From assembly GCA_009838735.1 (NCBI GenBank), contig VXQZ01000011.1:17601-81600 (forward strand): a stretch of 64,000 nt of DNA. Direction: 5' to 3'. The notes below the pieces were generated by a model. That model was given only the letters and a program-made list of their open reading frames with translations, did no database searches and was not told where the DNA came from. The translations under genes were made by a program, and so were the position numbers. Origin of the DNA: Chloroflexota bacterium (GTDB lineage Bacteria > Chloroflexota > Dehalococcoidia > Bin125). Positions 49,340 to 62,528 of this stretch are shown here, piece by piece. The number at the start of each line of letters is the position of its first letter. Position 1 is the stretch's first letter.

Positions 49340-51655
49340 TCAGCCGGCCTCCGACGCCTCCTCAAGCGTCATCGTCCTTGGCAGTTTGACCTTCGGCTCG
49401 ATTTTGACATCTACGACGTGGATCGTTCCGGTGAACTCGAAGGGGGCTGCGTAGGTGTCTGAGACGGGGGAGTAGTTGTCAGCTCCGACGTCGGCGCCGC
49501 CTCTCACGCCGATTCCTGTGATGTCTGCGATCTCCACCTGCCCCGCGTCTCGGCCATTGACCGTGAAGTTCACAACACCTTCCCTGGCCTCGTTCGAGGT
49601 CATCCTGGCCGACAGGGTCGACTTGCCGATCGGCAGTTCGGCGTCGGATCGGCCGATGGTGTGATTCTCACGCGAGTTGTAGTCGAGGCAGAGGCGGTTG
49701 TCCTGCACGTAGAGCGAGACGCCGCCGGCCATGCTGCCCGAGGCGTAGAGCACGCCCTCCTGGTCGCTGCTGGTGCGATCAATCTCGGCGGTGATTTGCC
49801 AGTCGCCGATGTGGATGACCGGCGCAACGCGGCCATGCAAGTGAGAGACGGGCGGGTAGAAGCGGTAGTGCAGACCCTCGTGCGGTCCGCCGGGCTTCGG
49901 GCTGGGGAGGCCCAGCGTGGGTAGTCGGTCGTCGAGCGGGAGCACGTTGTAGCGGCCCGCTTCGATCCACCAGCGGTCGATCATGCGCTGCAGGCGATCG
50001 GGCTCTTCGCCGGACAGGTCGTGGAGCTCGGAAAAGTCCTCCTCGAGGTTGAACAGCTCCCACTGGTCTTCCCCGAAGGGGGTGCCGCGGAAATGTCGGG
50101 TGACGGCTTTCCAGCCGTCCATCCAGATCGCGCGGTGGCCCCACATCTCGAAGTACTGAACGCCCTTGTTCGACGGCGCGTCGGGGTCCGCAAACGTGTA
50201 GGCCAGGCTCTTGCCGTGGATCGGCATCTGCGCGAGCCCTTGGTGTGCTTTCGGAGCTTCCTCGTCGAGTACATCGAGCACGGTCGGTACCAGGTCGGTC
50301 ACGTGATGGAACTGGTTCCTGATTTGCCCCTGAGGCACGCGTTCCGGCCAGCGAACGATCAGCGGTACGCGGATCCCGCCGCCGTACGCGTCGCTCTTGT
50401 ACCAGCGCAGCGGTGTGTTGGCGACCTGGGCCCAGCCCCAGGGGACGTCGGTCCAGCTGCGCGCCGTGCCGACGTCATCGAGTCGCGCTTGCAGGGCGGC
50501 CAGGCGTTCGTCGTGCATCGATCCCTGGTCGCCCATCGGAATGTTCAGCAAGCCGCCCTCGTTGGAGGAAATGCCATGGCCGCCCTGGGCCAGGCTGAAC
50601 ATGCCCATCGGCCCGCCCATGCCGGAGGCGCCGTTGTCCGACGTGAGCATGACGATGGTGTTGTCGAGCTGTCCCGAGTCTTCCAGGTACTCAAAGAGGC
50701 GGCCGAGCTGCGCGTCGGTGTGGTCGAGGAACGCTCCGAACGCTTCGAAGAGCCGTGCGGCGAATCGCCTGGCGTCTTCGGAGAGGTCGTCCCAGCGCTC
50801 GACGCCCGGGTTTCGGTCGGCCAGCTTCGTGTCGGGCGGGATGATTCCGCTGGCGAGTTGACGCTCGTACCACTCCTGGCGGATCTCGTCCCAGCCGGCG
50901 TCGAAGCGACCTCGGTACTTCTCGACGTACTCGCGCGGGGATTGGTGCGGCTCGTGCACGGCGCCGAGAGCGAGATAGGTGAAGAACGGCTGCTCAGGCC
51001 GGTGCGACTGCTTGTCCCTGATGAACTGAATCGCATGGTCGACCAGATCCTCCGTGATGTGATAGCCGTCCTCGGGACGGCTGGGCGGAGTGATGTGTCG
51101 GTTGTCCTCGGTCAGTTCGGGATAGAACTGATCGGTCGCGCCGGCGAGGAAGCCGTAGTAGCGGTCGAATCCTCGCTGCAGCGGCCAGTGATCGTAGGGA
51201 CCGGCTGCGCCGTTCTCCTCGGCCGGGCTGAGGTGCCACTTGCCGACCATGTAGGTCGCATAGCCGCGCGGCCGCAGCATCTCCGCCAGGGTCGCCGAGT
51301 GCTTCGAGACCGCGGATCGCATGTTGGTGAACCCGGTGTCGTGAAAGCTGATCGTGCGCATGCCCACGGCGTGGTGATTGCGGCCCGTGAGTAGCGAGGC
51401 CCGGGTCGGCGAGCAGAGCGGCGTCACATGGAAGTTGGAGTAGCGCAGGCCCTCGTCGGCCAGTTTGTCGATGTTGGGGGTATCGATCGTCGAGCCGTAA
51501 CAGCCGAGATGGGCGAAGCCCATGTCGTCAAAGAGGATGATCAGCACATTCGGCCGAGGGCCATGCTCATCTTCGGGCAGCAACGGCCACCAGGGTTCCG
51601 ACTCCTCGAAGGTGACACCTACCTGGCCTCTGAAATCTTCAAACTGTTCTGACAT
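49340..51655 (-). CDS. arylsulfatase (Cys-type, formylglycine-dependent), copy 1
   Basis: LCSPTRASLLTGRNHH C-x-P-x-R formylglycine motif, GKWHLS; 771 aa. Confidence 0.85.
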   Translation of the reverse strand: MSEQFEDFRGQVGVTFEESEPWWPLLPEDEHGPRPNVLIILFDDMGFAHLGCYGSTIDTPNIDKLADEGLRYSNFHVTPLCSPTRASLLTGRNHHAVGMRTISFHDTGFTNMRSAVSKHSATLAEMLRPRGYATYMVGKWHLSPAEENGAAGPYDHWPLQRGFDRYYGFLAGATDQFYPELTEDNRHITPPSRPEDGYHITEDLVDHAIQFIRDKQSHRPEQPFFTYLALGAVHEPHQSPREYVEKYRGRFDAGWDEIRQEWYERQLASGIIPPDTKLADRNPGVERWDDLSEDARRFAARLFEAFGAFLDHTDAQLGRLFEYLEDSGQLDNTIVMLTSDNGASGMGGPMGMFSLAQGGHGISSNEGGLLNIPMGDQGSMHDERLAALQARLDDVGTARSWTDVPWGWAQVANTPLRWYKSDAYGGGIRVPLIVRWPERVPQGQIRNQFHHVTDLVPTVLDVLDEEAPKAHQGLAQMPIHGKSLAYTFADPDAPSNKGVQYFEMWGHRAIWMDGWKAVTRHFRGTPFGEDQWELFNLEEDFSELHDLSGEEPDRLQRMIDRWWIEAGRYNVLPLDDRLPTLGLPSPKPGGPHEGLHYRFYPPVSHLHGRVAPVIHIGDWQITAEIDRTSSDQEGVLYASGSMAGGVSLYVQDNRLCLDYNSRENHTIGRSDAELPIGKSTLSARMTSNEAREGVVNFTVNGRDAGQVEIADITGIGVRGGADVGADNYSPVSDTYAAPFEFTGTIHVVDVKIEPKVKLPRTMTLEEASEAG

Positions 51656-51757: not shown

Positions 51758-54085
51758 TCAGCCCGATTCGCTTGCCTCTCTGGGGGTCTGTGGTCGTGGC
51801 AATGTGCCCCTGGGCGTTACCCGGACATCGAGGACGTGGATGGTGCCCGCGAACTCGAACGGCGCCTCGTAGCTGCCGGTAGTGGGCGAGTAATGATCGG
51901 CGCCGATGTCGGCGCCGCCGCGCACGGCGATACCGCTGGTGTCGGGAATCGCGATCGTTCCTGATTCTTCGCCGTCTACGAAGAGTGTCACGACGCCGGA
52001 CTTGTCGGCGCTCGAGGCAAGCGTTGCCGACACAGTTGTCATTCCAGCCGGAAGCTCAGAATCGCTCCGACCAACGGTGACGTCTTCCCGCGAGTTGAAG
52101 TCCAGGCAGAGCCGATTGCCCTGGATGTAGAACGAGACACCGCCGGCCATGCTGCCGTGCGCGAACAGCACTCCCTCTTGGTCCGTGCTCTCTCGTTCGA
52201 CATCCGCCGTGATCGTCCAGTCGCCGAGCTGGAGCATTGGCGAGACCCGACCGTGCAGGTGGGCGGTCGGCGGGTAGTAGCGATAGTGCAGACCGTCGTG
52301 CGGATTGCCGGGGCGTTGGCTCGGCCCTCCGGCCAGCGTCCGGTCGTCCAGTGGCAAGACGTTGTAGCGGCCGGCTTCGATCCACCAGCGGTGGATCATC
52401 CGCTGGAGGCGTTCCGGTTCCTGGTCTGCGAGGTTGTTGGTCTCGGAGAAGTCCTCGGCGAGATTGAACAGCTCCCACTCATCCTCGTCGTAGGGCCTGC
52501 CGCGGAAGTGTCGGGTGACCGCTTTCCAGCCATCCATCCAGATCGCGCGGTGGCCCCACATTTCGAAATACTGCACGCCCTTGTTCGATTCGGCGTCGGG
52601 ATCCTCGAAGGTGTAGGCCATGCTTTTGCCGTGGACCGGCATCTGGGCGAGCCCCTTGTAGCTGTCTGGCGCCGACTCTCCCAGTACGTCCAGAACCGTC
52701 GGCACGATGTCGGTCACATAGTGGAACTGATCGCGGATCTGGCCTTGCGGCACCCGTTCCGGCCAGCGAACGATCAGCGGCACGCGCACGCCGCCGCCGT
52801 GGGCGTCGCTTTTGTACCAGCGCAGCGGCGTGTTGGCGACCTGCGCCCAGCCCCAGGGAATGTCGGTCCAGCTCCGCGGCCCGCCGATGTCGTCGAGTCT
52901 CGACTGCCAGGCCTCCAGCCGCTCCGCCTCCTCAGTCGCGGGAGGGCGACCGGGCCCCCGTTGCATCAGTTCGCCATCGTTCGTCGAGATGCCGTTGCCG
53001 CCCGCGACGATGCTGAGCATGCCCATCGGTCCGCCCATGCCCGAGGCTCCGTTGTCCGAGGTCAGGACGACGATGGTGTTGTCGAGCTGTCCCGAGTCCT
53101 CCAGGTGTTGAAGCAGTCGCCCGAGCTGCGCATCGGTGTGATCGAGAAAGCCGGCGAATGCTTCGAACAGCCTCGCCGCGAAGCGCTTGCCGTTGTCGGA
53201 CAGGTCTTCCCAGCGCTTGACTCCTGGATTCCGGTCAGCCAGTTCGGTGTCCGGAGGAATGATTCCGCTGGCCAGTTGCCGTTCGTACCACTCCCGGCGT
53301 ACCTCGTCCCAGCCGGCGTCGAAGCGGCCGCGGTACTTCTCGACGTACTCGGGCGGCGACTGGTGCGGCTCGTGGACGGCGCCCAGGGCGAAGTACATGA
53401 AGAAGGGTTGATCGGGTCGGTGCGACTGCTTGTCGCGCAGGAAGGAGATGCCGTTGTCGACCAGGTCTTCGGTGACGTGATAGCCCTCTTCCGGTGATTT
53501 GGGCGGAAGGATGTGGTGATTGTCGTGCGTCAGTTCGGGATAGAACTGGTCGGTCGCGCCGGAGAGGAAGCCGTAGTAGCGATCGAATCCGCGCTGTAGC
53601 GGCCAGTTCTCGTAGGGTCCGGCGGGACCGTTCTCCTCGGCCGGGCTGAGGTGCCACTTGCCGACCATGTAGGTGGCGTAGCCGCGCGCCTGCAGCATCT
53701 CGGCAAGCGTCGCCGAGTGCTTCGACACGGACGCGCGCATGTTGGTGAACCCGGTGTCGTGGAAGTTGGCGATCGTCCGCATCCCCACCGCGTGGTGGTT
53801 GCGCCCGGTCATCAACGACGCCCGAGTGGGCGAGCACAGTGGAGTCACGTGGAAGTTGGAGTAGCGCAAACCCTCTTCGGCCAACCGATTGATGTTGGGC
53901 GTGTCGATGGTTGAGCCGTAGCAATTCAGATGGGCGAATCCCATGTCGTCGAAGAGGATGATCAGCACGTTTGGGCGAGGCCCATGTTCATGCTCCGGCA
54001 GCAGCGGCCACCACGGTTCGGACTCGTCAATCGTCACACCAACGTGGCCCTGGAAGTCCTCGAACTGTTCTGACATTGCGTTCAC
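51758..54085 (-). CDS. arylsulfatase (Cys-type), copy 2 (tandem paralog)
   Basis: Same CSPTRASLMTGRNHH motif; alternative start at MSEQFEDF (54076). Confidence 0.85.
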   Translation of the reverse strand: MNAMSEQFEDFQGHVGVTIDESEPWWPLLPEHEHGPRPNVLIILFDDMGFAHLNCYGSTIDTPNINRLAEEGLRYSNFHVTPLCSPTRASLMTGRNHHAVGMRTIANFHDTGFTNMRASVSKHSATLAEMLQARGYATYMVGKWHLSPAEENGPAGPYENWPLQRGFDRYYGFLSGATDQFYPELTHDNHHILPPKSPEEGYHVTEDLVDNGISFLRDKQSHRPDQPFFMYFALGAVHEPHQSPPEYVEKYRGRFDAGWDEVRREWYERQLASGIIPPDTELADRNPGVKRWEDLSDNGKRFAARLFEAFAGFLDHTDAQLGRLLQHLEDSGQLDNTIVVLTSDNGASGMGGPMGMLSIVAGGNGISTNDGELMQRGPGRPPATEEAERLEAWQSRLDDIGGPRSWTDIPWGWAQVANTPLRWYKSDAHGGGVRVPLIVRWPERVPQGQIRDQFHYVTDIVPTVLDVLGESAPDSYKGLAQMPVHGKSMAYTFEDPDAESNKGVQYFEMWGHRAIWMDGWKAVTRHFRGRPYDEDEWELFNLAEDFSETNNLADQEPERLQRMIHRWWIEAGRYNVLPLDDRTLAGGPSQRPGNPHDGLHYRYYPPTAHLHGRVSPMLQLGDWTITADVERESTDQEGVLFAHGSMAGGVSFYIQGNRLCLDFNSREDVTVGRSDSELPAGMTTVSATLASSADKSGVVTLFVDGEESGTIAIPDTSGIAVRGGADIGADHYSPTTGSYEAPFEFAGTIHVLDVRVTPRGTLPRPQTPREASESG

Positions 54086-54114: not shown

Positions 54115-54645
54115 TTAAGTCTTGGAATCAATGCTCTTGAGCAGATCGCGGATTTCGACGAGCAACTCGTTTTCGCTCGCGGCGACCGTCGGCGCCGCAG
54201 ACGGTGGTCCGCCCTCCTGGAGGATCTCCCGCTGACGCAGGACGGCGTCGCGGAAGGCTGGGGCGTCAACGACGCCGATCAGGTTGCCCTCGGCTCCGGT
54301 CGTGCCGGATTGGCCGGCGGTCTCGACCTTGAGCCCTTGAATCCCGCAGAAGCGCATCAGTGGACCATCGTGCAGCCGAACGTCGGTGATCCGGTCCAGC
54401 GGAATCGTGCTGTCGCTGCGGAAGTAGACGCCGCGAGTCAGTTCCAGCGAAGTCGGCGTCAGGCGGGCGCTGAAGCGGTCATAGGCCCTGGGCAGATAGG
54501 ACACGCTCCAGATCAGCCAGAACGGAATCAGAGGGATGCCCGCCAGGGTGATGAACAGCAACAGGCTGACGGCGAGCCGTCCATAGCCCATCACCCGCCG
54601 ATCGAACTCCGCTTGCAGCAGTACTTCGTCTCGCGACGACGTCAT
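54115..54645 (-). CDS. membrane protein with bacterial PH domain (bPH_2/YdbS-like, DUF304)
   Basis: Two N-terminal TM helices then YFRSDSTIPLDRITDVRLHDGPLMRFCGIQGLKVETAG pattern typical of bPH_2; start at MTSSRD chosen to avoid overlap with divergent LLM gene. Confidence 0.65.
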   Translation of the reverse strand: MTSSRDEVLLQAEFDRRVMGYGRLAVSLLLFITLAGIPLIPFWLIWSVSYLPRAYDRFSARLTPTSLELTRGVYFRSDSTIPLDRITDVRLHDGPLMRFCGIQGLKVETAGQSGTTGAEGNLIGVVDAPAFRDAVLRQREILQEGGPPSAAPTVAASENELLVEIRDLLKSIDSKT

Positions 54646-54731
54646 GTTGTCTCTCCAATATGAGGTCTTCGTGCTCGCTGCAACCATAGGTGAAACCCGA
54701 CTCAAGCCGGGTTGGCGGAGGGCAAAGCGAC

Positions 54732-55667
54732 ATGGAATTCGGTATCCACCTGGTGCAGCAGAACACGACAATCGGGGAGTGCCGCCAGCTCTGGCGTTGG
54801 GCGGACACGGCTGGATTCACCTGGGTTGACGTTTCCGACCATTTCTACGAATCGCCGATGACCGAGAAGCGCGGGCCGTACCTGGAATGCCTGGCCAGCC
54901 TGACCGCCCTCGCGATCGACACCGAGCATGTCCGTGTGGGCACCTGCGTCCTGGCAATGGACTACCGCCATCCGGCCGTCCTCGCCAATGCACTGGCCAC
55001 GATTGACCATCTCGCCGATGGCCGCCTCGACGTCGGACTCGGCGCGGGCTGGAACGTTCAGGAGTACGAGGCCTACGGCATCCGGTTCGATCGCATCGGT
55101 CAGCGCATGGATCGTCTGGAGGAAGGCATTCACGTGCTTCGCGCCCTCTGGGAGGAGCCCGTAGCCAACTACGCCGGTGAGTACTTCCAACTCGATGATG
55201 CTCTTTGTGAGCCCAAGCCCTTGCAGGATCGGGTACCAATCTGGATCGGCGGCGTCGGCGAGCGGCGAACGCTGCAGCTGGTGGCTCGCTATGCCGGCGG
55301 CTGGAATGCGCCGTACCTCACGGTCGCTGACTGGCAGAGACTCTCGGGCGTACTCGATGAGTGGTGCGAACGGGTCGGTCGCGATCCGTCGCAGATCCAG
55401 CGCGACGTCAACCTTTCGTTCCACTTGGCCGCCGACGAGTCGGACCGTCCGAGGGCGCAGGCGCACTTTGAGGAAGTCTTCGGCCCGGCGGGCGACGCAT
55501 TCCGCCAGCGCGGCGCAATCGTCGGCACTCCTGCTGAGGCAATCGACATGCTGGCGGACTACGCAGATGCCGGCGTCGATCGTGTGAACATCACGCTTCG
55601 TCCTCCATGGGACTGGGACGCACTGCATGCGTTCAGCAGCGAGGTGATTCCGGAGCTATCGCGTTAG
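54732..55667 (+). CDS. LLM-class F420-dependent oxidoreductase
   Basis: MEFGIHLVQQN...VGLGAGWNVQEYEAYGI TIM-barrel LLM motifs; 311 aa. Confidence 0.75.
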   Translation: MEFGIHLVQQNTTIGECRQLWRWADTAGFTWVDVSDHFYESPMTEKRGPYLECLASLTALAIDTEHVRVGTCVLAMDYRHPAVLANALATIDHLADGRLDVGLGAGWNVQEYEAYGIRFDRIGQRMDRLEEGIHVLRALWEEPVANYAGEYFQLDDALCEPKPLQDRVPIWIGGVGERRTLQLVARYAGGWNAPYLTVADWQRLSGVLDEWCERVGRDPSQIQRDVNLSFHLAADESDRPRAQAHFEEVFGPAGDAFRQRGAIVGTPAEAIDMLADYADAGVDRVNITLRPPWDWDALHAFSSEVIPELSR

Positions 55668-55679
55668 GTTGGGCGTTCC

Positions 55680-57344
55680 ATGCTTCGCGTTCTGCTACTG
55701 CTGCTGGGATTGGGGCTCGCCGCCATATTTTCGGCAGCGTGCGTCGACGAGATTCCGACTGCCACTCAAGAGTCACGAGCGCTGGAGACACCAGAGGAGT
55801 CAACTCCGCACCCGGATCAAGCGCAACAGGCTGCTGAGGAAGCAACCGCGCCTGACGACGGCTCGGAGGACGATCAGCCAATCAGAACGGACATCTACAG
55901 CTATCGCTCAGTGCGTCGCTTCGCCGACCGGATGCTCGAAGTCCTTGCGGCCGAACGCGTCTGGTGCGACGAGCAAGTCGAGGTCGATGCTCTCCGCGCG
56001 ATGCTCGACGACCACGACAAAGAGCACATCTGGCGCAGCCTGTTAGTTCCTGCGGCAGGCGAAGATCTGCGAGCGGTCCGGATCATCGCAGAGGCGACCG
56101 CCCAGGTGCGCGGCATCCCCATGCAGGAGCTGCCGCCGGTGTTTCTGATCAGCCGGACCAGTCTGCGCCATCACGCCTGTCTGTTCGAAGAGATCTGGGA
56201 AGACCCGACGGACGAGGATCGGGATTGGACGGTGGGCCGTCCGGCGAGCCGGCTGGCAATTCTGCTTGGCCAGGATGTCGAGGACTACAGCGACCTGGAA
56301 CAGAGCTGGCTCAGCGCGACGCTGGCCTGGGGCTGGTACGGGGAGATCCCCGACGCGGACGAGCTCGAACCGGGCGCAGACGGCGTGGGTGAGGTGATCA
56401 TCGTCTCAAGACCCTCAATGCCGGCGGTCTTTGTTGATGTCATCTCCCATGAGCTGGTTCACTTTCTGCAGGATCAGTGGACCGGCTGGCGGCTGCACGA
56501 CTGGTATCGGGATGTCGAAACCACCGATCAGCTCCAGGCGCTCCGCTGGGTCGTCGAGGGCGACGCCTCGTTGAACGAGTTGTACCTGCTGAATGCGCCG
56601 CTGTCGGATCGATTGGCCGACTTTGAGTGGGGACCGGAACGGAATGCCGAATTGGCCCTTTGGTATCGGGCTTACCACGCGCTGACGCCTCAGGACTCGG
56701 AGAATCTCTTCGCCGCATACGACCAGGGCAGGAGCGTCCTCGCCGCGCTTCGCGAGGACCGCGGTCAGGAAGCCATCGATGCGCTGCTGCTCGATCCGCC
56801 CGAGTCGACCGAACAACTGCTTCATCCGGAGAAGCTTCGGCTCGACGAACAACCTGTGGAACTCGTCGATCTTGAGCGGTTGCGCACAGAGATATTTCCA
56901 GAGGCAGATTGGAGTGAACCGATCGTCGATCGGATGGGCGAGCAGTGGCTGAACACCTTGATCCTGACGACAACCAGGTTCACAACGTTGGCTCGGGCTG
57001 TTGCAACCGGTTGGGGTTCGGATCAGATGGCTCTGTGGCAATCTCAAGACGGATCAGCGGAGGTCGTGACCTGGCAAGTGGTGTTTGACCACGATGCGCA
57101 TCACAGGGAGGCGGTCAACGGACTCAGAGGCTGGTTCTATAGCCACTCCGCTCTCGAGGCCGTGCCCGACCAGGACGATCCGGCGAACTTGCACAAATGG
57201 GACGGCCCGAACGGAGCCGCGCGTCTTGTAATCCGGCCGCATAGTGTCTGGGTTGTGGCTGCAGACAGTCCAGCGCTTGCCGATCGGGTCGCGGAAGGAA
57301 TCCGCAGCCGGGCCTGGACCAACTACTGGCCGCCTGACTCCTAG
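55680..57344 (+). CDS. putative secreted lipoprotein with HExxH zinc-metallopeptidase motif
   Basis: Signal peptide plus lipobox (LAAIFSAAC), acidic low-complexity linker, VISHELVHFLQD HExxH; family unknown. Confidence 0.5.
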   Translation: MLRVLLLLLGLGLAAIFSAACVDEIPTATQESRALETPEESTPHPDQAQQAAEEATAPDDGSEDDQPIRTDIYSYRSVRRFADRMLEVLAAERVWCDEQVEVDALRAMLDDHDKEHIWRSLLVPAAGEDLRAVRIIAEATAQVRGIPMQELPPVFLISRTSLRHHACLFEEIWEDPTDEDRDWTVGRPASRLAILLGQDVEDYSDLEQSWLSATLAWGWYGEIPDADELEPGADGVGEVIIVSRPSMPAVFVDVISHELVHFLQDQWTGWRLHDWYRDVETTDQLQALRWVVEGDASLNELYLLNAPLSDRLADFEWGPERNAELALWYRAYHALTPQDSENLFAAYDQGRSVLAALREDRGQEAIDALLLDPPESTEQLLHPEKLRLDEQPVELVDLERLRTEIFPEADWSEPIVDRMGEQWLNTLILTTTRFTTLARAVATGWGSDQMALWQSQDGSAEVVTWQVVFDHDAHHREAVNGLRGWFYSHSALEAVPDQDDPANLHKWDGPNGAARLVIRPHSVWVVAADSPALADRVAEGIRSRAWTNYWPPDS

Positions 57345-57401
57345 ACGCACCGAACCTGGCGGTAAACTGCCTGCGAACCTTGACCAGTGGGGAGGCTGAA
57401 C

Positions 57402-59003
57402 ATGCCCGTTGACCAGACACGCGAATCGTGGAAGCCGGGACAGGACTGGCAAGGCGCGATCGACGAAATCAACTACATCAAGGAACTCGGCCGCGAGATG
57501 GGCGGAGAGTACGGCGTCGCGCGACAACACCGCGGCGGCCGCTACACAATCCGGGAGCGGATTGACAAGTTCCTCGATCGGGACTCATTCTTCGAGGCCG
57601 GCCCGCTGGTCGGCGGCTATGAGTACGACGAGAACGGCGACCTGCGCGAGTTCACGCCGGGCGCGTTCGTCATGGGCATGGGCCAGATCGACGGCCGCAA
57701 CATTGTCATCGGCGGCGACGACTTCACGATCTCGGGCGGCTCGCCGCACAACGTGTCCAAGGGCGCCTCACAGTTCGCAACTCCGCTCGCGTCGCAGTAC
57801 GGCCTGCCATACGTGCAACTGATCGAAGGCGTCGGGCACAGCGCCAAGCGCGACGAGGAAGAGGGCCGCATGGCCCTGCCCGGCGGCCAGACCTGGTGGC
57901 GGCACATCAACCTGCTGAACAAGGTGCCCGTCGCCTCGGGGATCATGGGCTCGGTCGCCGGCGCACCGGCGGCCTTCGCGCTGCTCTCGCACTTCACGGT
58001 GATGATCAAGGGTCAGTCACAGATCTTCCCCTCAGGGCCACCGGTGGTGCGCCGCGCGATCGGCGAGACCTTCAACAAGGAAGAGCTTGGCGGTTCGAGG
58101 GTCCATGTCTATCAGAGCGGCCAGGTCGACAACGAAGCCGAGGACGAAGAGGACGCATTCGACCAGATCAAGAAGTTCCTCTCCTACTTGCCCGACACCA
58201 CCAGTGACGTCACTGAACGGGTCGACAACGGCGACGATCCCAACCGCCGTGTCGAGGAACTCCTGCGGATCATCCCCGAGAACCGCAAGCGGGGGTACAA
58301 CCCGCGCAAGCTGCTCAAACTGGTCTTCGACAACGGGGAATTCTTCGAGATGCGACCTCACTGGGGCGGCGCGATCATCACTGGCTTCGCTCGGATCGGC
58401 GGCTACGCGGTCGGCGTCGTCGCCAGCGATCCCTACGTGATGGCCGGCGCGATGAACGGCGACGCCGCCGACAAGTTCGCCCACTTCGTCGACCTCTGCG
58501 ACGGATTCAACCTGCCGATGGTGATCTTCCTCGACATGCCAGGATTCATGCTGGGCTCGCAGGCCGAGCTCAACCAGACCATGCGACGGGGCACCCGCGC
58601 CCTGATCGCCGCCTACGAGGCCGACGTGCCCAAGGTCGAGTTCAACATTCGCAAGAGCTACGGCGTCGCCGCCGACGCGCCCAACAGCATGGGCGAGCCG
58701 AACGGCGTGAACATGCGCTTCGGCTGGCCAGCCGGCGAGTGGGGCGGCATCCCGATCGAGGGCGGCGTCGCGGCCGCCTATCGGCGAGAAATCGAGGCAG
58801 CCGAGAATCCCGAGGCTCATCGCGAGATGATCGAGAATCGGCTGCTCAAGCTGAGAAGCCCCTTGAAGGCAGCCCACAACTTCGACGTGATCGACCTAAT
58901 CGATCCCCGGGATACGCGCCGGATCGCCTTCCGCTTCATCGAGGCCGCCCAGCCCATGCTCAAGCGCCTGGCCCAACGTCCAAAGCGGATTATCCGACCA
59001 TAA
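57402..59003 (+). CDS. acyl-CoA carboxylase carboxyltransferase subunit (propionyl-CoA carboxylase beta-like)
   Basis: Two crotonase-fold CT subdomains, 534 aa; GGAGG RBS 7 nt upstream of ATG 57402. Confidence 0.85.
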   Translation: MPVDQTRESWKPGQDWQGAIDEINYIKELGREMGGEYGVARQHRGGRYTIRERIDKFLDRDSFFEAGPLVGGYEYDENGDLREFTPGAFVMGMGQIDGRNIVIGGDDFTISGGSPHNVSKGASQFATPLASQYGLPYVQLIEGVGHSAKRDEEEGRMALPGGQTWWRHINLLNKVPVASGIMGSVAGAPAAFALLSHFTVMIKGQSQIFPSGPPVVRRAIGETFNKEELGGSRVHVYQSGQVDNEAEDEEDAFDQIKKFLSYLPDTTSDVTERVDNGDDPNRRVEELLRIIPENRKRGYNPRKLLKLVFDNGEFFEMRPHWGGAIITGFARIGGYAVGVVASDPYVMAGAMNGDAADKFAHFVDLCDGFNLPMVIFLDMPGFMLGSQAELNQTMRRGTRALIAAYEADVPKVEFNIRKSYGVAADAPNSMGEPNGVNMRFGWPAGEWGGIPIEGGVAAAYRREIEAAENPEAHREMIENRLLKLRSPLKAAHNFDVIDLIDPRDTRRIAFRFIEAAQPMLKRLAQRPKRIIRP

Positions 59004-59210
59004 GGCAGAACGAGAAGAGTTACCGTGCTGACTTCTTGGCGGTGATGATCACTAACAGAGCTTTGTCGAAGTGCCCATATCCAAGACAATCTAAACTGCG
59101 GGCCTTGTGGTCAGATGGTGTCCTACTGGAAAAAGCGGTGTTCGAGGATTTCCTACAGACCTGCCAACCTCGTTCTGCGCTTCAGGAGGAGCGTCGGCAT
59201 CGGCGAGCAA

Positions 59211-60083
59211 CTAGCGTTGTTCTGGATCTGCTTTGCGAGCCCAAGCGTCAAACCTTGCCTCATCCCCAACTTCGATCTCGAAGTGTGGGAACGTGAGTTC
59301 CTTCGGGCAATCGCAATCTTGGAAGCTCTTGCTTGAACCACAGGGACACGGTTGGGTCGGAGTAATACCATCATCGGAACCAAACTTCCTCTTCCGTTCT
59401 TCTTTCTCGTAGGACCATGCCGTCCAAGGTGACTCGAGGATTTCTGCCACGCGCTGCAGATGCGATAGCCGGGAATCGTTGTCCCCATTCGGAAAGATGA
59501 CTGAGTACTTTTGATTAGGGTTGTCGACCAGCGAGATCTCGAGGATATCAACATCCGTGATTGCTCTCGCGCACATTTCGCCGTCATATATTTCACCGAC
59601 CACGTGGTCGCAGGTGTTGCGGAGATAGATTCTCGCGTCGCAAACGGAGCACCTCATCTCACGAAACAGATAAGCTGGGCTAACACCCAGTGTAAACGGG
59701 TACAAATCCTGAAACTTGGGGATGTGACTACGCATGTGGCGAATGCCGAATCGATCATTAACTTCGGTGAAATGCGGTTTCAGGTGGACTAAGACGATCT
59801 CGCACTGTTCCAATTTGTCCCACGCGCTCTTGAACTTTCCCGCCGATAGGTCGGTGAATGCCTCGGTAAAGAGGTCTTGGGAGCGACCAATAGACTCAAG
59901 GCACCAAATCGCCTTAGCAAGTGATTGATTTCCAGTGGAGACAGCGACAAGCTTCTTTGCTTTCAGCGTTTCGGCGAACTGGGGTGGCAGTGATTCAAGG
60001 CGGCGTTCGTTGTAGCTCTGTAGAACACGCCGCTCAAGACGGAGGTCAGGATGATGGATTGTCTTGCGAACACTTGCCGTCAT
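59211..60083 (-). CDS. hypothetical protein with C-terminal SEC-C-like motif (PCPCGSSKSFQDCDC) and CxxC...CxH...C cluster; low-GC island gene B
   Basis: 290 aa; ~50% GC versus ~66% genome; start overlaps upstream gene A by 38 nt (translational coupling). Confidence 0.6.
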   Translation of the reverse strand: MTASVRKTIHHPDLRLERRVLQSYNERRLESLPPQFAETLKAKKLVAVSTGNQSLAKAIWCLESIGRSQDLFTEAFTDLSAGKFKSAWDKLEQCEIVLVHLKPHFTEVNDRFGIRHMRSHIPKFQDLYPFTLGVSPAYLFREMRCSVCDARIYLRNTCDHVVGEIYDGEMCARAITDVDILEISLVDNPNQKYSVIFPNGDNDSRLSHLQRVAEILESPWTAWSYEKEERKRKFGSDDGITPTQPCPCGSSKSFQDCDCPKELTFPHFEIEVGDEARFDAWARKADPEQR

Positions 60084-60639
60084 TGTCGTCCTCGTCTGTC
60101 GAAGTCGCAGCCGTCAGTGCAGTCAGAAGGGTACGTTCGTACGTGTCTGCAGGTCCATCAAATGCGTAGAGAATTAAGTCGCCGGTTGGACTCTTTACAT
60201 GTATGCGACTGTTTACGGTGCTGCCCTTTTGAGTTCCAAATCTGTCCACTAGCCGACGCTTCACGAATGATGCTACAATTGGGATCAAGATCTGTGCAAC
60301 TGATATGCTGAAAGTGACCATCTCTGGTATGATCAGAGTTTCGGAGTTGTACGAAACCTCTATGTACTCTTCATCGCGTACTAAAGCTTCTACTTTGATG
60401 GCAGGGTCAGCGCATGTCTCGATGAATTGTAGGACGTCACGTGTGAGTTCGGGGAAAGCGAGTTCCGTCTGTTCGGGACCCTCCTCCGTTGGAACAACGA
60501 CCTCTGTTGGTGCAACAAGCACCGAAGCAGTTTGCAAGTTCACTATCTGCTCGGTCGAGGACGCGGAGTTGGATATAGCTGCCTCAACGTTGAGGGGCGA
60601 TCGAAGAACATGCAGTGGCTCAGATTCGCTGGGAGGCAT
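60046..60639 (-). CDS. hypothetical protein, low-GC island gene A
   Basis: 197 aa, acidic C-terminus; ~48% GC; first gene of overlapping two-gene cassette. Confidence 0.55.
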   Translation of the reverse strand: MPPSESEPLHVLRSPLNVEAAISNSASSTEQIVNLQTASVLVAPTEVVVPTEEGPEQTELAFPELTRDVLQFIETCADPAIKVEALVRDEEYIEVSYNSETLIIPEMVTFSISVAQILIPIVASFVKRRLVDRFGTQKGSTVNSRIHVKSPTGDLILYAFDGPADTYERTLLTALTAATSTDEDDNDGKCSQDNPSS

Positions 60640-60670
60640 GGCCGACCATTCCCTTCTTACTCCAGCCTAG

Positions 60671-62206
60671 TTACTTCGCAAGGCCCAGTTTCTTCGCCAG
60701 CCCGATGCGCTGAATCTTGCCCGTGGTGCCCTTTGGAATCTCGTCGAGGATCACGACTCGTCTCGGCGTCTTGAAGTCCGCGACCCGTTCGCCGACGAAG
60801 CGGCGGATCGCCCGTTCGTCCGACTCTTCGCCGTCGCGCAGGACAACCGCCGCTGCTACTTCCTCGCCCAGGCGATCGTGCGGCATCGCAAAGGTGACTG
60901 CCTGTGCCACCGCAGGATGCTGGAGCAGCGCTTCATCAATTTCGCGCGGCGAGATCTTCTCTCCGCCTCGATTGATGATCTCCTTGAGCCGGCCGGTGAT
61001 CGTCAGGTAGCCGTCATCATCGAGCACGCCCTGGTCGCCGGTGCGGAACCAGCCTCGCGTGTAGGCGGTGGCGTTGGCCTCGGGATTGTTGCGGTAGCCG
61101 TCGGTGACGTTGGCGCCGCGAATCACGACCTCGCCGCGCTGACCCATGGCCAGCAGTGCGCCGTCCTCGTCCATGATCGCGATCTCCGGACCGGCGGGCA
61201 GGCCGACGCTGCCCGGCTTGCGCTCGAGCGGCGGCATGGGATTCGAGCTCATCTGGTGGGCCGCCTCGGTCATGCCGTAGGACTCGATCACGGGAGCGTC
61301 GAACGTCTCCTCCAGTTCCGCCATCACGGTCGGTGGCAGCGAGGAGGAGGAAGACCTGATCAGGCGCAAGCTGGTCTCGGCAAGCACGTCGGCATTGCGT
61401 GATGCGCGCGTGAGAATCAGCTGGTGCATGGTTGGGACGGCCGTGTACCAGGACGGCTTCGCCTCGCGCAGCCAGCCGAAGACCTGCATCGCGTTGAAGC
61501 CCGGCGAGCACCAGGTGCAGCCGCCCGCGCCGATGCTCGCCAGGATGCCGGCCATCACACCGTGGATGTGAAACAGCGGCATGATGTTGAGGCAGCGGTC
61601 CTCTGAGGTCAGATTCAGCGTGTTGCGGATGTTGTGAGCCGTCGCAGTCAGATTGCGCTGGCGCAGCGGCACGATCTTGGGCCGCGAGGTGGTACCCGAG
61701 GTGTGCAACACGAGGCCGACATCATCCGGCCCCGATGCGCCCGGTCGAGCCGGGGCGCCGCTGATATCGGCCGAGAGGCTGAAGGTTCCGGCCGGCCCGT
61801 CAGAACTCGGGTGAAGCTCCACCAACGGAGTGCCCAGTCGCTGCGCGACCTCACGAACGGGCGAGTCCACCCCGTCCTGAACCACGACGGCCTTCGCATC
61901 CAGATCCTGCAGATAAAACTCGAACTCGTCGGCGCGGTAACCGGGATTGAGCGGCGCAGCCGTCGCGGCGTTGGCGACGCCGAGGAAGGCGGCCGCCATC
62001 TCGGCGCCGTTGGGCAGCACGATCGCGATGCCGTCCTCACGTCCGAGGCCGAAACTGTTGAGCTGCTCCGCGGTCTGTGTGATCTGGTCGCGCAGACCAC
62101 CAAAGGTCAGATCGGGCCGTCCCGGCGAGCCGAGCGCGGAGCGGTCGCCGCCCAACGGAGCGAGCAACTCGGAGATGGTCCTGGCGTCAGAGTTTGGCTG
62201 GGTCAC
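60671..62206 (-). CDS. AMP-dependent synthetase/ligase (acyl-CoA synthetase family)
   Basis: AMP-binding motif LHTSGTTSRPKIV, 511 aa, typical high GC. Confidence 0.8.
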   Translation of the reverse strand: MTQPNSDARTISELLAPLGGDRSALGSPGRPDLTFGGLRDQITQTAEQLNSFGLGREDGIAIVLPNGAEMAAAFLGVANAATAAPLNPGYRADEFEFYLQDLDAKAVVVQDGVDSPVREVAQRLGTPLVELHPSSDGPAGTFSLSADISGAPARPGASGPDDVGLVLHTSGTTSRPKIVPLRQRNLTATAHNIRNTLNLTSEDRCLNIMPLFHIHGVMAGILASIGAGGCTWCSPGFNAMQVFGWLREAKPSWYTAVPTMHQLILTRASRNADVLAETSLRLIRSSSSSLPPTVMAELEETFDAPVIESYGMTEAAHQMSSNPMPPLERKPGSVGLPAGPEIAIMDEDGALLAMGQRGEVVIRGANVTDGYRNNPEANATAYTRGWFRTGDQGVLDDDGYLTITGRLKEIINRGGEKISPREIDEALLQHPAVAQAVTFAMPHDRLGEEVAAAVVLRDGEESDERAIRRFVGERVADFKTPRRVVILDEIPKGTTGKIQRIGLAKKLGLAK

Positions 62207-62322: not shown

Positions 62323-62414
62323 GGAGAGGTGTCCGAGTGGCCGAAGGAGCCGATCTCGAAAATCGGTAGGTGCGGCGACGTGCCTCGTGGGTTCGAATCC
62401 CACCCTCTCCGCCA
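62323..62414 (+). tRNA. tRNA-Ser (anticodon CGA), long variable arm, CCA encoded
   Basis: Manual fold: acceptor GGAGAGG/CCTCTCC, anticodon stem CCGAT/ATCGG with loop CTCGAAA, T-arm GTGGGTTCGAATCCCAC. Confidence 0.8.
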
Positions 62415-62438: not shown

Positions 62439-62528
62439 GGAGAGGTGCTGGAGTGGACGATCAGGCACGCCTGGAAAGCGTGTAGGGCTGCAAGGCCCTC
62501 GTGGGTTCGAATCCCACCCTCTCCGCCA
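62439..62528 (+). tRNA. tRNA-Ser (anticodon GGA), long variable arm, CCA encoded
   Basis: Same acceptor and T-arm as first copy; anticodon stem CACGC/GCGTG with loop CTGGAAA. Confidence 0.8.

Follow-up and report, generated by a model that had tools for sequence, protein, structure and literature searches.

A mobile two-gene cassette pairs a predicted membrane protein with a zinc-motif protein whose core is related to phage prohead proteases

Abortive-infection systems of two genes may combine a membrane protein with a cytosolic sensor, as in RexAB of lambda and KwaAB of Kiwa, in which the membrane components RexB and KwaA are multi-pass proteins. Among phage enzymes, the prohead proteases use a conserved His and a conserved Ser, plus a third residue downstream of the Ser (PMC7411985). 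Rugutis, a protein encoded by a lactococcal plasmid, contains a SEC-C motif in an otherwise novel fold, and its antiphage activity has been demonstrated (PMC11381338), which indicates that SEC-C-bearing proteins can act in defence. It was the one SEC-C-bearing antiphage protein found in our literature search. In this study, we analysed a cassette of two overlapping genes, designated gene A and gene B, in a 64-kb stretch of a Chloroflexota genome (contig VXQZ01000011.1; hereafter, the window). Gene A is predicted to encode an acidic protein with one membrane-spanning helix, and gene B encodes a protein with two zinc-site motifs, one of which belongs to a core related to the prohead proteases.

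The cassette resembles RexAB and KwaAB in being a compact, mobile operon that encodes a membrane protein and a soluble one; however, it has no sequence or fold relationship to them, its gene order and domains are different, and gene A has a single helix. Rugutis is the product of a single gene, 359 aa long, with an N-terminal SEC-C motif and no membrane partner, whereas the cassette consists of two genes and has a C-terminal SEC-C knuckle. Homology to Rugutis beyond the motif was not evident, and no Lactococcus plasmid was among the 211 plasmids matched by tblastn. Gene B has the same near-C-terminal C-x-C-x8-C-[CH] knuckle as the SEC-C proteins SecA, YchJ and YecA, but only ~20 residues are common to them; the rest is unrelated, and in the window copy the fourth ligand is shifted (C-D-C). 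The linked A-B pair is an uncharacterised family, with no Pfam model for gene A, none for most of gene B and no solved structure.

An earlier note, made from the letters of the window alone, had described two overlapping open reading frames (ORFs) of 197 and 290 aa on the minus strand, sharing 38 nt, and had proposed that they are functionally linked. The ORFs were confirmed, and both are intact. Genes A and B are in different frames, and a GAGGA Shine-Dalgarno sequence lies inside gene A, 5 nt upstream of the ATG of gene B. At other loci, an unannotated gene of ~185 aa overlapping the starts of gene B homologs was identified as the gene A homolog, and independent gene calls for 9 other loci gave overlaps of 4-38 nt or gaps of at most 7 nt between A and B. 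The linkage set comprised 65 loci from species-representative genomes, in which gene A homologs were identified by an iterated search. In ~65 of 67 intact loci, which represented more than 10 phyla and archaea, gene B is immediately preceded by a gene A homolog in the same orientation; this arrangement recurred in 13 additional loci (metagenomes, plasmids, E. coli and prophages). The identity matrices of A and B were highly correlated (Mantel r = 0.90, 55 loci), and none of 999 permutations reached this value. Thus, near-universal synteny, overlap and co-evolution supported the functional linkage of A and B. There was no third conserved gene: no neighbour family recurred in more than 3 of 63 loci, indicating that the unit consists of exactly two genes.

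Disrupted copies were found in both directions. Gene B was broken and gene A intact at three loci (L017, L060 and L062), and gene A was frameshifted or absent and gene B intact at two, in an isolate genome (L019) and at L009; these counts are small, and some of the copies come from metagenome-assembled genomes. The L009 copy, from a metagenome-assembled genome of Peptococcaceae (1270-2235), is the one case of an apparently solo gene B, being intact with no gene A detectable within 1.3 kb upstream. At another locus, in a Verrucomicrobiota metagenome-assembled genome (L028 6241-8738), the order is A-B-B, with two tandem full-length copies of gene B.

A word-indexed protein search recovered at least 146 gene B homologs at 33-63% identity. 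The AlphaFold model of gene B (predicted local distance difference test score, pLDDT, 88; predicted template modelling score, pTM, 0.84) showed a five-helix N-terminal domain, a beta-rich region with a zinc ribbon, and a C-terminal SEC-C knuckle. The helical domain gave only generic helical-bundle matches in fold searches. The zinc-ribbon motif reads C145-x2-C148-x9-C158-x-H160-x10-C171, and an alignment of 173 gene B homologs indicated that C145, C148, C158 and H160 are 100% conserved and C171 94%. Conservation of both Cys clusters lies between 94 and 100% in these homologs, and 39 columns stay at least 85% identical across them.

Both Cys motifs were present as described in the earlier note, which had assigned the one near the C-terminus to the SEC-C type. 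The Pfam SEC-C model (PF02810) scored 17.8 bits on the window copy of gene B, below the cutoff of 20.4, because this copy has the C-D-C variant: in the window protein and its nearest homolog (L001), the usual C-x-C-x8-C-C is replaced by C-x-C-x8-C-[DE]-C, which moves the fourth ligand by one residue. Precomputed PF02810 matches exist for most gene B homologs, and the gene B family profile matched the zinc fingers of YchJ (9l6b; 1.5e-6) and SecA (1sx0, 1ozb; 6e-6). The SEC-C assignment therefore holds at the family level, and metal binding is predicted for the knuckle.

The earlier note had recognised no enzymatic family for gene B. This part did not stand: as judged from profile comparisons, homology links the core of gene B (aa 132-200), the second Cys cluster included, to a portion of the zinc-ribbon prohead serine proteases of phages. 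Scans of profile libraries with gene B gave one meaningful match, phrog_16951 (annotated 'unknown function'; E = 5e-7, aa 145-199), and the weak gene B matches in genomes and viral contigs were proteins of 300-730 aa that share the core region. When the gene B alignment was compared with the viral alignment by hhalign, the two matched with 98.9% probability (E = 3.9e-17) over 66 columns, covering aa 132-200 of gene B. Every invariant viral position corresponded to a conserved position of gene B; the shared positions, in gene B numbering, are S135, C145, C148, C158, H160, G163, Y166, G168, E169, C171, E182, S184, V186 and P189. S135, which occupies the position of the catalytic Ser and is 100% conserved in the 173 homologs, aligned with S137, an invariant residue in the viral clade, and with MS114VGF of HK97 gp4. 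The segment E182-I-S184-L-V186-D-N-P189 fitted the E-[IV]-S-x-V-x-x-P strand of the proteases, and V186 and P189 were 97% and 99% conserved. In addition, the hidden Markov model (HMM) of gene B matched gp123 of Bacillus phage 0305phi8-36, a protease/scaffold protein, across the module (2e-12).

The protease label reaches gene B transitively, via these viral relatives. They bear an N-terminal KPILxHHD..DPIGR motif and matched head-maturation-protease PHROGs (2e-6 and 7e-5) and, faintly, Peptidase_S78_2. Their homologs in cultured phages are annotated as 'prohead protease', 'protease/scaffold' or 'major head and protease protein', and are located between the portal and major head genes. HK97 gp4 has the same order of motifs without the zinc ribbon (MS114VGF ... 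GRIF ... REISVCTFPAN). The direct comparison of gene B with HK97 gp4 was not significant, and gene B had no match to Pfam Peptidase_S78, S78_2 or U35. The phrog_16951 family is a zinc-ribbon clade of the prohead proteases and is located between the portal and major head genes (L064-L069, L161-L167, L168 4857-6326 and L169 3947-4639). In its long forms, an acidic linker is accompanied by a C-terminal FCGPxRSFP..AH..AARRLI domain that is conserved (phrog_16160) and presumably serves in scaffolding or targeting.

Compared with the zinc-ribbon prohead proteases (phrog_16951, 0305phi8-36 gp123, the Cormatin protease of a Flavonifractor phage and gp19 of Bacillus phage G), gene B has in common a collinear module of 66 residues, running from S135 through CxxC...CxH...GEIYDGE.C to E-x-S-x-V-x-x-P. 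Unlike them, it is without the KPILxHHD..DPIGR His half and has a five-helix domain, a SEC-C knuckle and a membrane-protein partner. Its genomic position also differs: no copy was seen between portal and capsid genes, and its carriers are cellular genomes or plasmids in which the neighbours vary. Two ways of completing a catalytic site were considered and rejected or weakened. A split protease, in which gene A supplies the His-bearing half, was rejected, as hhalign gave a probability of 0.15% and gene A has no conserved polar residues of the catalytic type. H160 as a third catalytic His of the assemblin kind was weakened, as HK97 gp4 has no His at that position; H160 is for this reason more likely a zinc ligand.

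In the word-indexed search, gene A matched only itself (5 matches with a profile). That it is an orphan or a spurious ORF was ruled out by a synteny-guided jackhmmer search and by an exhaustive HMMER search, which gave a family of 752 clusters at 50% identity, 541 of them with E <= 1e-10. A word-indexed search can thus wrongly return 'orphan' for large families of fast-evolving small proteins. Hydropathy analysis predicted one membrane-spanning helix: the best 19-residue Kyte-Doolittle window was 2.08 in the window copy, and a value of at least 1.6 was reached in 97% of 155 gene A representatives versus 0% of gene B homologs. The sequence is acidic before the helix and basic after it. The isoelectric point (pI) is 4.3 in the window copy, which ends in an acidic tail (...TSTDEDDNDGKCSQDNPSS); the median is 5.0 in the gene A family and 7.2 in gene B homologs. 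Conserved motifs of the N-terminal domain are VLIVP, FPxGT and DEDYxE. No match to gene A was obtained in Pfam, PHROG, PADLOC, NCBIfam or PDB, and the family alignment contained no conserved polar residues of the catalytic type. The AlphaFold model of gene A, built from a 5-sequence alignment, was unreliable (pLDDT 38). N-terminal fusions to CopG-antitoxin or Xre-type helix-turn-helix (HTH) domains occurred in 3 of 149 gene A homologs. Other N-terminal extensions were also seen, namely DUF6887 in a cyanobacterial copy (1.6e-14; L048 7147-7893) and a single case of DUF2442.

The cassette coincides with a compositional island that is real, sharp and far beyond chance. The guanine-cytosine (GC) content at 59004-60670 is 0.518, compared with 0.641 +/- 0.014 (minimum 0.600) in windows of the same size from the rest of the 64 kb (z = -8.9). 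At third codon positions (GC3), it is 0.51 in gene A and 0.58 in gene B, compared with 0.86 and 0.83 in the flanking carboxyltransferase and acyl-CoA synthetase genes. The windowed GC and GC3 values thus agree with the drop claimed in the earlier note. The closest relative found was a 538-kb metagenome contig (L078), in which the carboxyltransferase and the synthetase have 95% and 90% protein identity to those of the window and the cassette is absent. Nucleotide homology with L078 set the edges of the inserted segment, which is 1.68 kb long (59003-60683). Relative to L078, the block 54115-59002 is inverted in the window, and the 59002|60684 breakpoint is precisely where the island sits; the matching junctions in L078 are only 200 and 288 nt long. 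In a metagenome scan, neither gene was found in any of 80 related carboxyltransferase loci. The foreign composition, together with the empty site in relatives, supports acquisition of the cassette in this lineage.

Proximity to a tRNA-Ser pair had also been offered as a clue that the cassette is an accessory system. The pair is present, tRNA-Ser(cga) at 62323-62414 and tRNA-Ser(gga) at 62439-62528, beyond the acyl-CoA synthetase gene; its distance from the island edge is ~1.65 kb and not 1.8 kb as stated. The clue itself proved uninformative. The segment contains no integrase and has no att repeats or other flanking direct repeats, and the tRNA genes stay beside the synthetase gene in L078, which has no cassette. 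This preserved synteny indicated that the tRNA genes are not the integration target, and a tRNA-targeted genomic island was rejected.

The cassette is horizontally mobile and of foreign origin. Its hosts include members of Chloroflexota, Bacillota, Bacteroidota, Cyanobacteria, Gamma- and Betaproteobacteria, Myxococcota, Planctomycetota, Verrucomicrobiota, Deinococcota and Abditibacteriota, as well as methanogenic and uncultured archaea. Its GC content is below that of the flanks in 32 of 41 genomes, with a mean difference of 7.1 points, suggesting that low GC is a trait of the family. Gene B homologs were detected by tblastn on 211 plasmids of PLSDB, 183 of them conjugative; the carriers are mostly IncHI2 or IncF plasmids of Enterobacter, Citrobacter, Klebsiella, E. 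coli and Salmonella. On the enterobacterial plasmids, a gene A homolog of 146 aa lies upstream of gene B (E ~1e-16). The enterobacterial version was present in 24 of 5426 complete E. coli genomes (0.4%), on chromosomes and plasmids, in copies at least 99% identical; a plasmid-borne E. coli version is that of pMyNCGM586 (LC744500.1, 181239-182502). One chromosomal copy in E. coli is inside an integrative element, with two integrases, an ISNCY transposase and hipBA alongside. The cassette was essentially absent from the phage genomes of INPHARED and was found in 3 of 2.9 million IMG/VR viral contigs, in none of them within a head module. The horizontal acquisition put forward in the earlier note was thus borne out by the composition, by the absence from L078 and the 80 related loci, and by the occurrence of this AT-rich family on plasmids, on integrative elements and in a prophage.

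In Enterobacteriaceae, the A-B pair was always accompanied by genes for TPR and FRG-domain proteins and located beside an ISNCY-family transposase (L072 4067-7732; L073 4132-7726; L077 9676-13270). This four-gene arrangement is limited to Enterobacteriaceae and was not seen in other phyla. One of the three IMG/VR contigs is a true prophage, in which the pair (L158 9469-10813) is situated between the early region, with an antirepressor gene, and the large terminase gene, a typical moron position.

We tentatively favour the view that the cassette is a mobile module most likely engaged in genetic conflict, which makes it a candidate anti-phage or abortive-infection system. Of the overall interpretation given in the earlier note, the foreign acquisition, the A-B linkage and the SEC-C assignment stood, the missing enzymatic family and the tRNA-Ser clue did not, and its defence or addiction reading is a plausible hypothesis. 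In favour of a conflict role are the A-B linkage and co-evolution, the mobility of the cassette, the transmembrane-type helix of gene A, the prohead-protease homology of the gene B core and the full conservation of S135, together with the genomic context of some copies. Clear defence islands surrounded the cassette at four loci: a type I restriction HsdR with GmrSD (L001); AIPR, DUF4420 and a Dcm methylase (L002); a type IIG restriction-modification system, HEPN/DndB, AbiJ, a KAP NTPase and integrases (L170); and an ABC-three-component system with an integrase (L074). The context was partial at L004, where AAA_15 and DUF4276 were found, and at L070, and the hipBA genes beside the E. coli chromosomal copy are a further neighbour of this kind. 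Among the 133 nearest neighbours, the recurrent families were integrases, PifA/KAP NTPases, Uma2, methylases and QatA-like proteins.

For a conflict system of this kind, a mechanism can be outlined. A and B would be made in a fixed proportion from the overlapping operon and would form a membrane-associated complex. The protease-derived core of B would recognise, and perhaps cleave, a head-assembly protein of an infecting virus with an HK97-fold capsid, an engagement modelled on the contact of a prohead protease with scaffold or capsid proteins. Either capsid maturation would be sabotaged directly, or A would be triggered to damage the membrane. The A-B complex, the defence function, the target and A as the effector are what we infer here. 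The complete proposal, that B is a domesticated fragment of a capsid-maturation protease turned on phages, held at the membrane by A and engaging HK97-fold scaffold or capsid proteins so that head maturation is sabotaged or membrane damage triggered, is unlikely as a whole. If the module is defensive, a component of host immunity would have been derived from a viral morphogenesis enzyme; and if a domesticated protease does act against phages, it would represent a previously unknown immune strategy, one that Bacteria and Archaea share and that conjugative plasmids of clinical importance carry. The A-B family is large, spans more than 10 bacterial phyla and methanogenic archaea, and is absent from the defence database and from the literature searched. 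The relationship of gene B to prohead proteases provides specific, falsifiable points of attack (S135, the zinc ligands and the SEC-C knuckle), and the natural E. coli version on IncHI2/IncF conjugative plasmids makes the module directly testable.

Several results weigh against a defensive role or against the outlined mechanism. Clear defence islands were found in ~3-5 of 11 Pfam-annotated metagenomic contexts (a raw count, about a third), and many copies, the window copy included, are solitary among housekeeping genes. Neither protein matched any model of PADLOC-DB v2.0.0, in which the SEC-C region of gene B gave a weak match to 'E2' (E = 0.01), and the literature search found no description of the pair and no link to defence. 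The His-bearing N-terminal half of the protease is undetectable in gene B: the homology starts at aa 132, aa 12-126 are instead predicted with high confidence to be helical, and the conserved H104 in that domain does not align with the protease His. It is therefore doubtful that gene B is a catalytically active protease. The whole gene B model had no match in PDB or BFVD at E <= 1e-3, and prohead proteases and assemblins were not recovered; its weak BFVD matches, in which the helical domain dominated, included 'Prohead protease' proteins and phage G gp19. As for gene A, its topology and any effector role are predictions from hydropathy.

The pair could instead be a toxin-antitoxin or addiction module that stabilises its host plasmids and islands, in which the toxic partner, either a protease (B) or a membrane poison (A), is neutralised by the other. 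Like type II toxin-antitoxin systems, the cassette has two small, overlapping, co-evolving genes, of which the upstream product is acidic (median pI 5.0) and the downstream product neutral to basic (7.2); conjugative plasmids and integrative elements commonly carry the pair, and the few CopG-antitoxin or Xre-type HTH N-termini of gene A homologs point the same way. However, some copies have a disruption in A alone and others in B alone, and neither pattern should be tolerable if the intact partner were a constitutive toxin, so the disruptions in both directions argue against a classical toxin-antitoxin dependency. More than 97% of gene A members are without a DNA-binding domain such as antitoxins have, and its ~180 aa and membrane helix would be unusual in an antitoxin. 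Nor does the pair contain a known toxin fold; scans of Pfam, NCBIfam, PADLOC and PHROG matched neither protein to a toxin or antitoxin family. We consider an addiction module improbable. A further reading, also unlikely, places the module outside conflict altogether, for example as a membrane-tethered protease or adaptor in quality control of the envelope or of secretion, where SecB, ribosomes or lipids would be contacted through the SEC-C knuckle, or as a module acting in metal stress. SEC-C knuckles of SecA bind SecB, ribosomes and lipids, the gene B family profile matches the SecA and YchJ zinc fingers, gene A is apparently membrane-anchored, and many copies lie among housekeeping genes. 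Several copies also adjoin metal-resistance genes: CsoR, a Cu P-type ATPase and YHS at L003 (7332-10342), and on plasmids a mer operon (L072 12832-14654) and an ars operon (L073 9457-12341). Such operons are generic accessory cargo of plasmids, and these neighbours are probably cargo shared by accessory regions. A physiological role is also difficult to reconcile with the very patchy distribution (0.4% of E. coli genomes, and absence from the closest relative), with a composition that is foreign in most hosts, with the lack of any conserved functional neighbour and with the phage origin of the gene B core.

A decaying remnant of a prophage head module, in which gene B would be a degenerate prohead protease lacking any independent function, would explain the homology of the core and the foreign nature of the segment. 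This reading is strongly disfavoured and very improbable. Both ORFs are intact, and the 39 highly conserved columns of gene B are maintained across its 173 homologs; the pairing with the non-viral gene A is kept across phyla with no other phage genes nearby; the viral contigs carry the cassette in only 3 of 2.9 million cases and never (0 of 3) in a head module; and the helical N-terminal domain and the SEC-C knuckle are additions specific to the family. The features of the locus are listed in Table 1.

Table 1. Features of the inserted segment and the A-B cassette, in window coordinates
Feature	Position	Strand	Basis
Low-GC inserted segment, whole cassette with short non-coding ends	59003..60683	.	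GC; L078 homology ends at 59002 and restarts at 60684
Gene A, 197 aa, acidic (pI 4.3), predicted single-pass membrane protein	60046..60639	-	ORF, family homology
Gene A N-terminal acidic domain, aa 1-101	60337..60639	-	Net charge -16 here, family mean -8.7
Gene A central hydrophobic transmembrane-type helix (predicted), aa 102-126, LIIPEMVTFSISVAQILIPIVASFV, followed by basic KRRLVDR	60262..60336	-	Hydropathy
Gene A C-terminal domain, aa 127-197, invariant G162 (YEGPA-type motif), acidic tail	60049..60261	-	Family conservation
A/B junction, 38-nt overlap (60046-60083) and GAGGA Shine-Dalgarno (60089-60093)	60046..60093	-	ORF map
Gene B, 290-aa soluble protein, two zinc sites (motifs)	59211..60083	-	ORF, homologs, AlphaFold
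Gene B N-terminal five-helix domain, aa 12-126	59706..60050	-	Model; conserved K44, W60, W88, H104, Q125
Gene B core module, aa 132-200	59484..59690	-	Homology to zinc-ribbon prohead proteases; S135, E182, S184, V186, P189
Zinc ribbon (predicted), C145-x2-C148 ... C158-x-H160 ... C171, with GEIYDGE	59571..59651	-	Conservation in 173 sequences
SEC-C zinc knuckle (predicted), aa 244-259, QPCPCGSSKSFQDCDC, variant C-x-C-x8-C-D-C	59307..59354	-	Pfam, family profile
Low-GC non-coding tail, 207 nt, downstream of gene B	59004..59210	-	Part of inserted segment

The flanking genes were assigned by Pfam as Carboxyl_trans (3e-94) and an AMP-binding acyl-CoA synthetase, and gene A begins 31 nt after the stop codon of the synthetase gene. 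A scan of the island revealed no sigma-70-like promoter, terminator, flanking repeat or Rfam element. Elsewhere in the window, a 554-aa ORF at 55680-57344 on the plus strand contains a HELVH (HExxH-type) motif, has a somewhat low GC3 (0.72) and gave no Pfam match; it is missing from L078, which has 718 nt there instead, and may be a second indel of the region. Two tandem paralogous sulfatase genes, each encoding ~773 aa with Pfam Sulfatase and SGSH_C domains, are located on the minus strand at 49340-51655 and 51758-54085.

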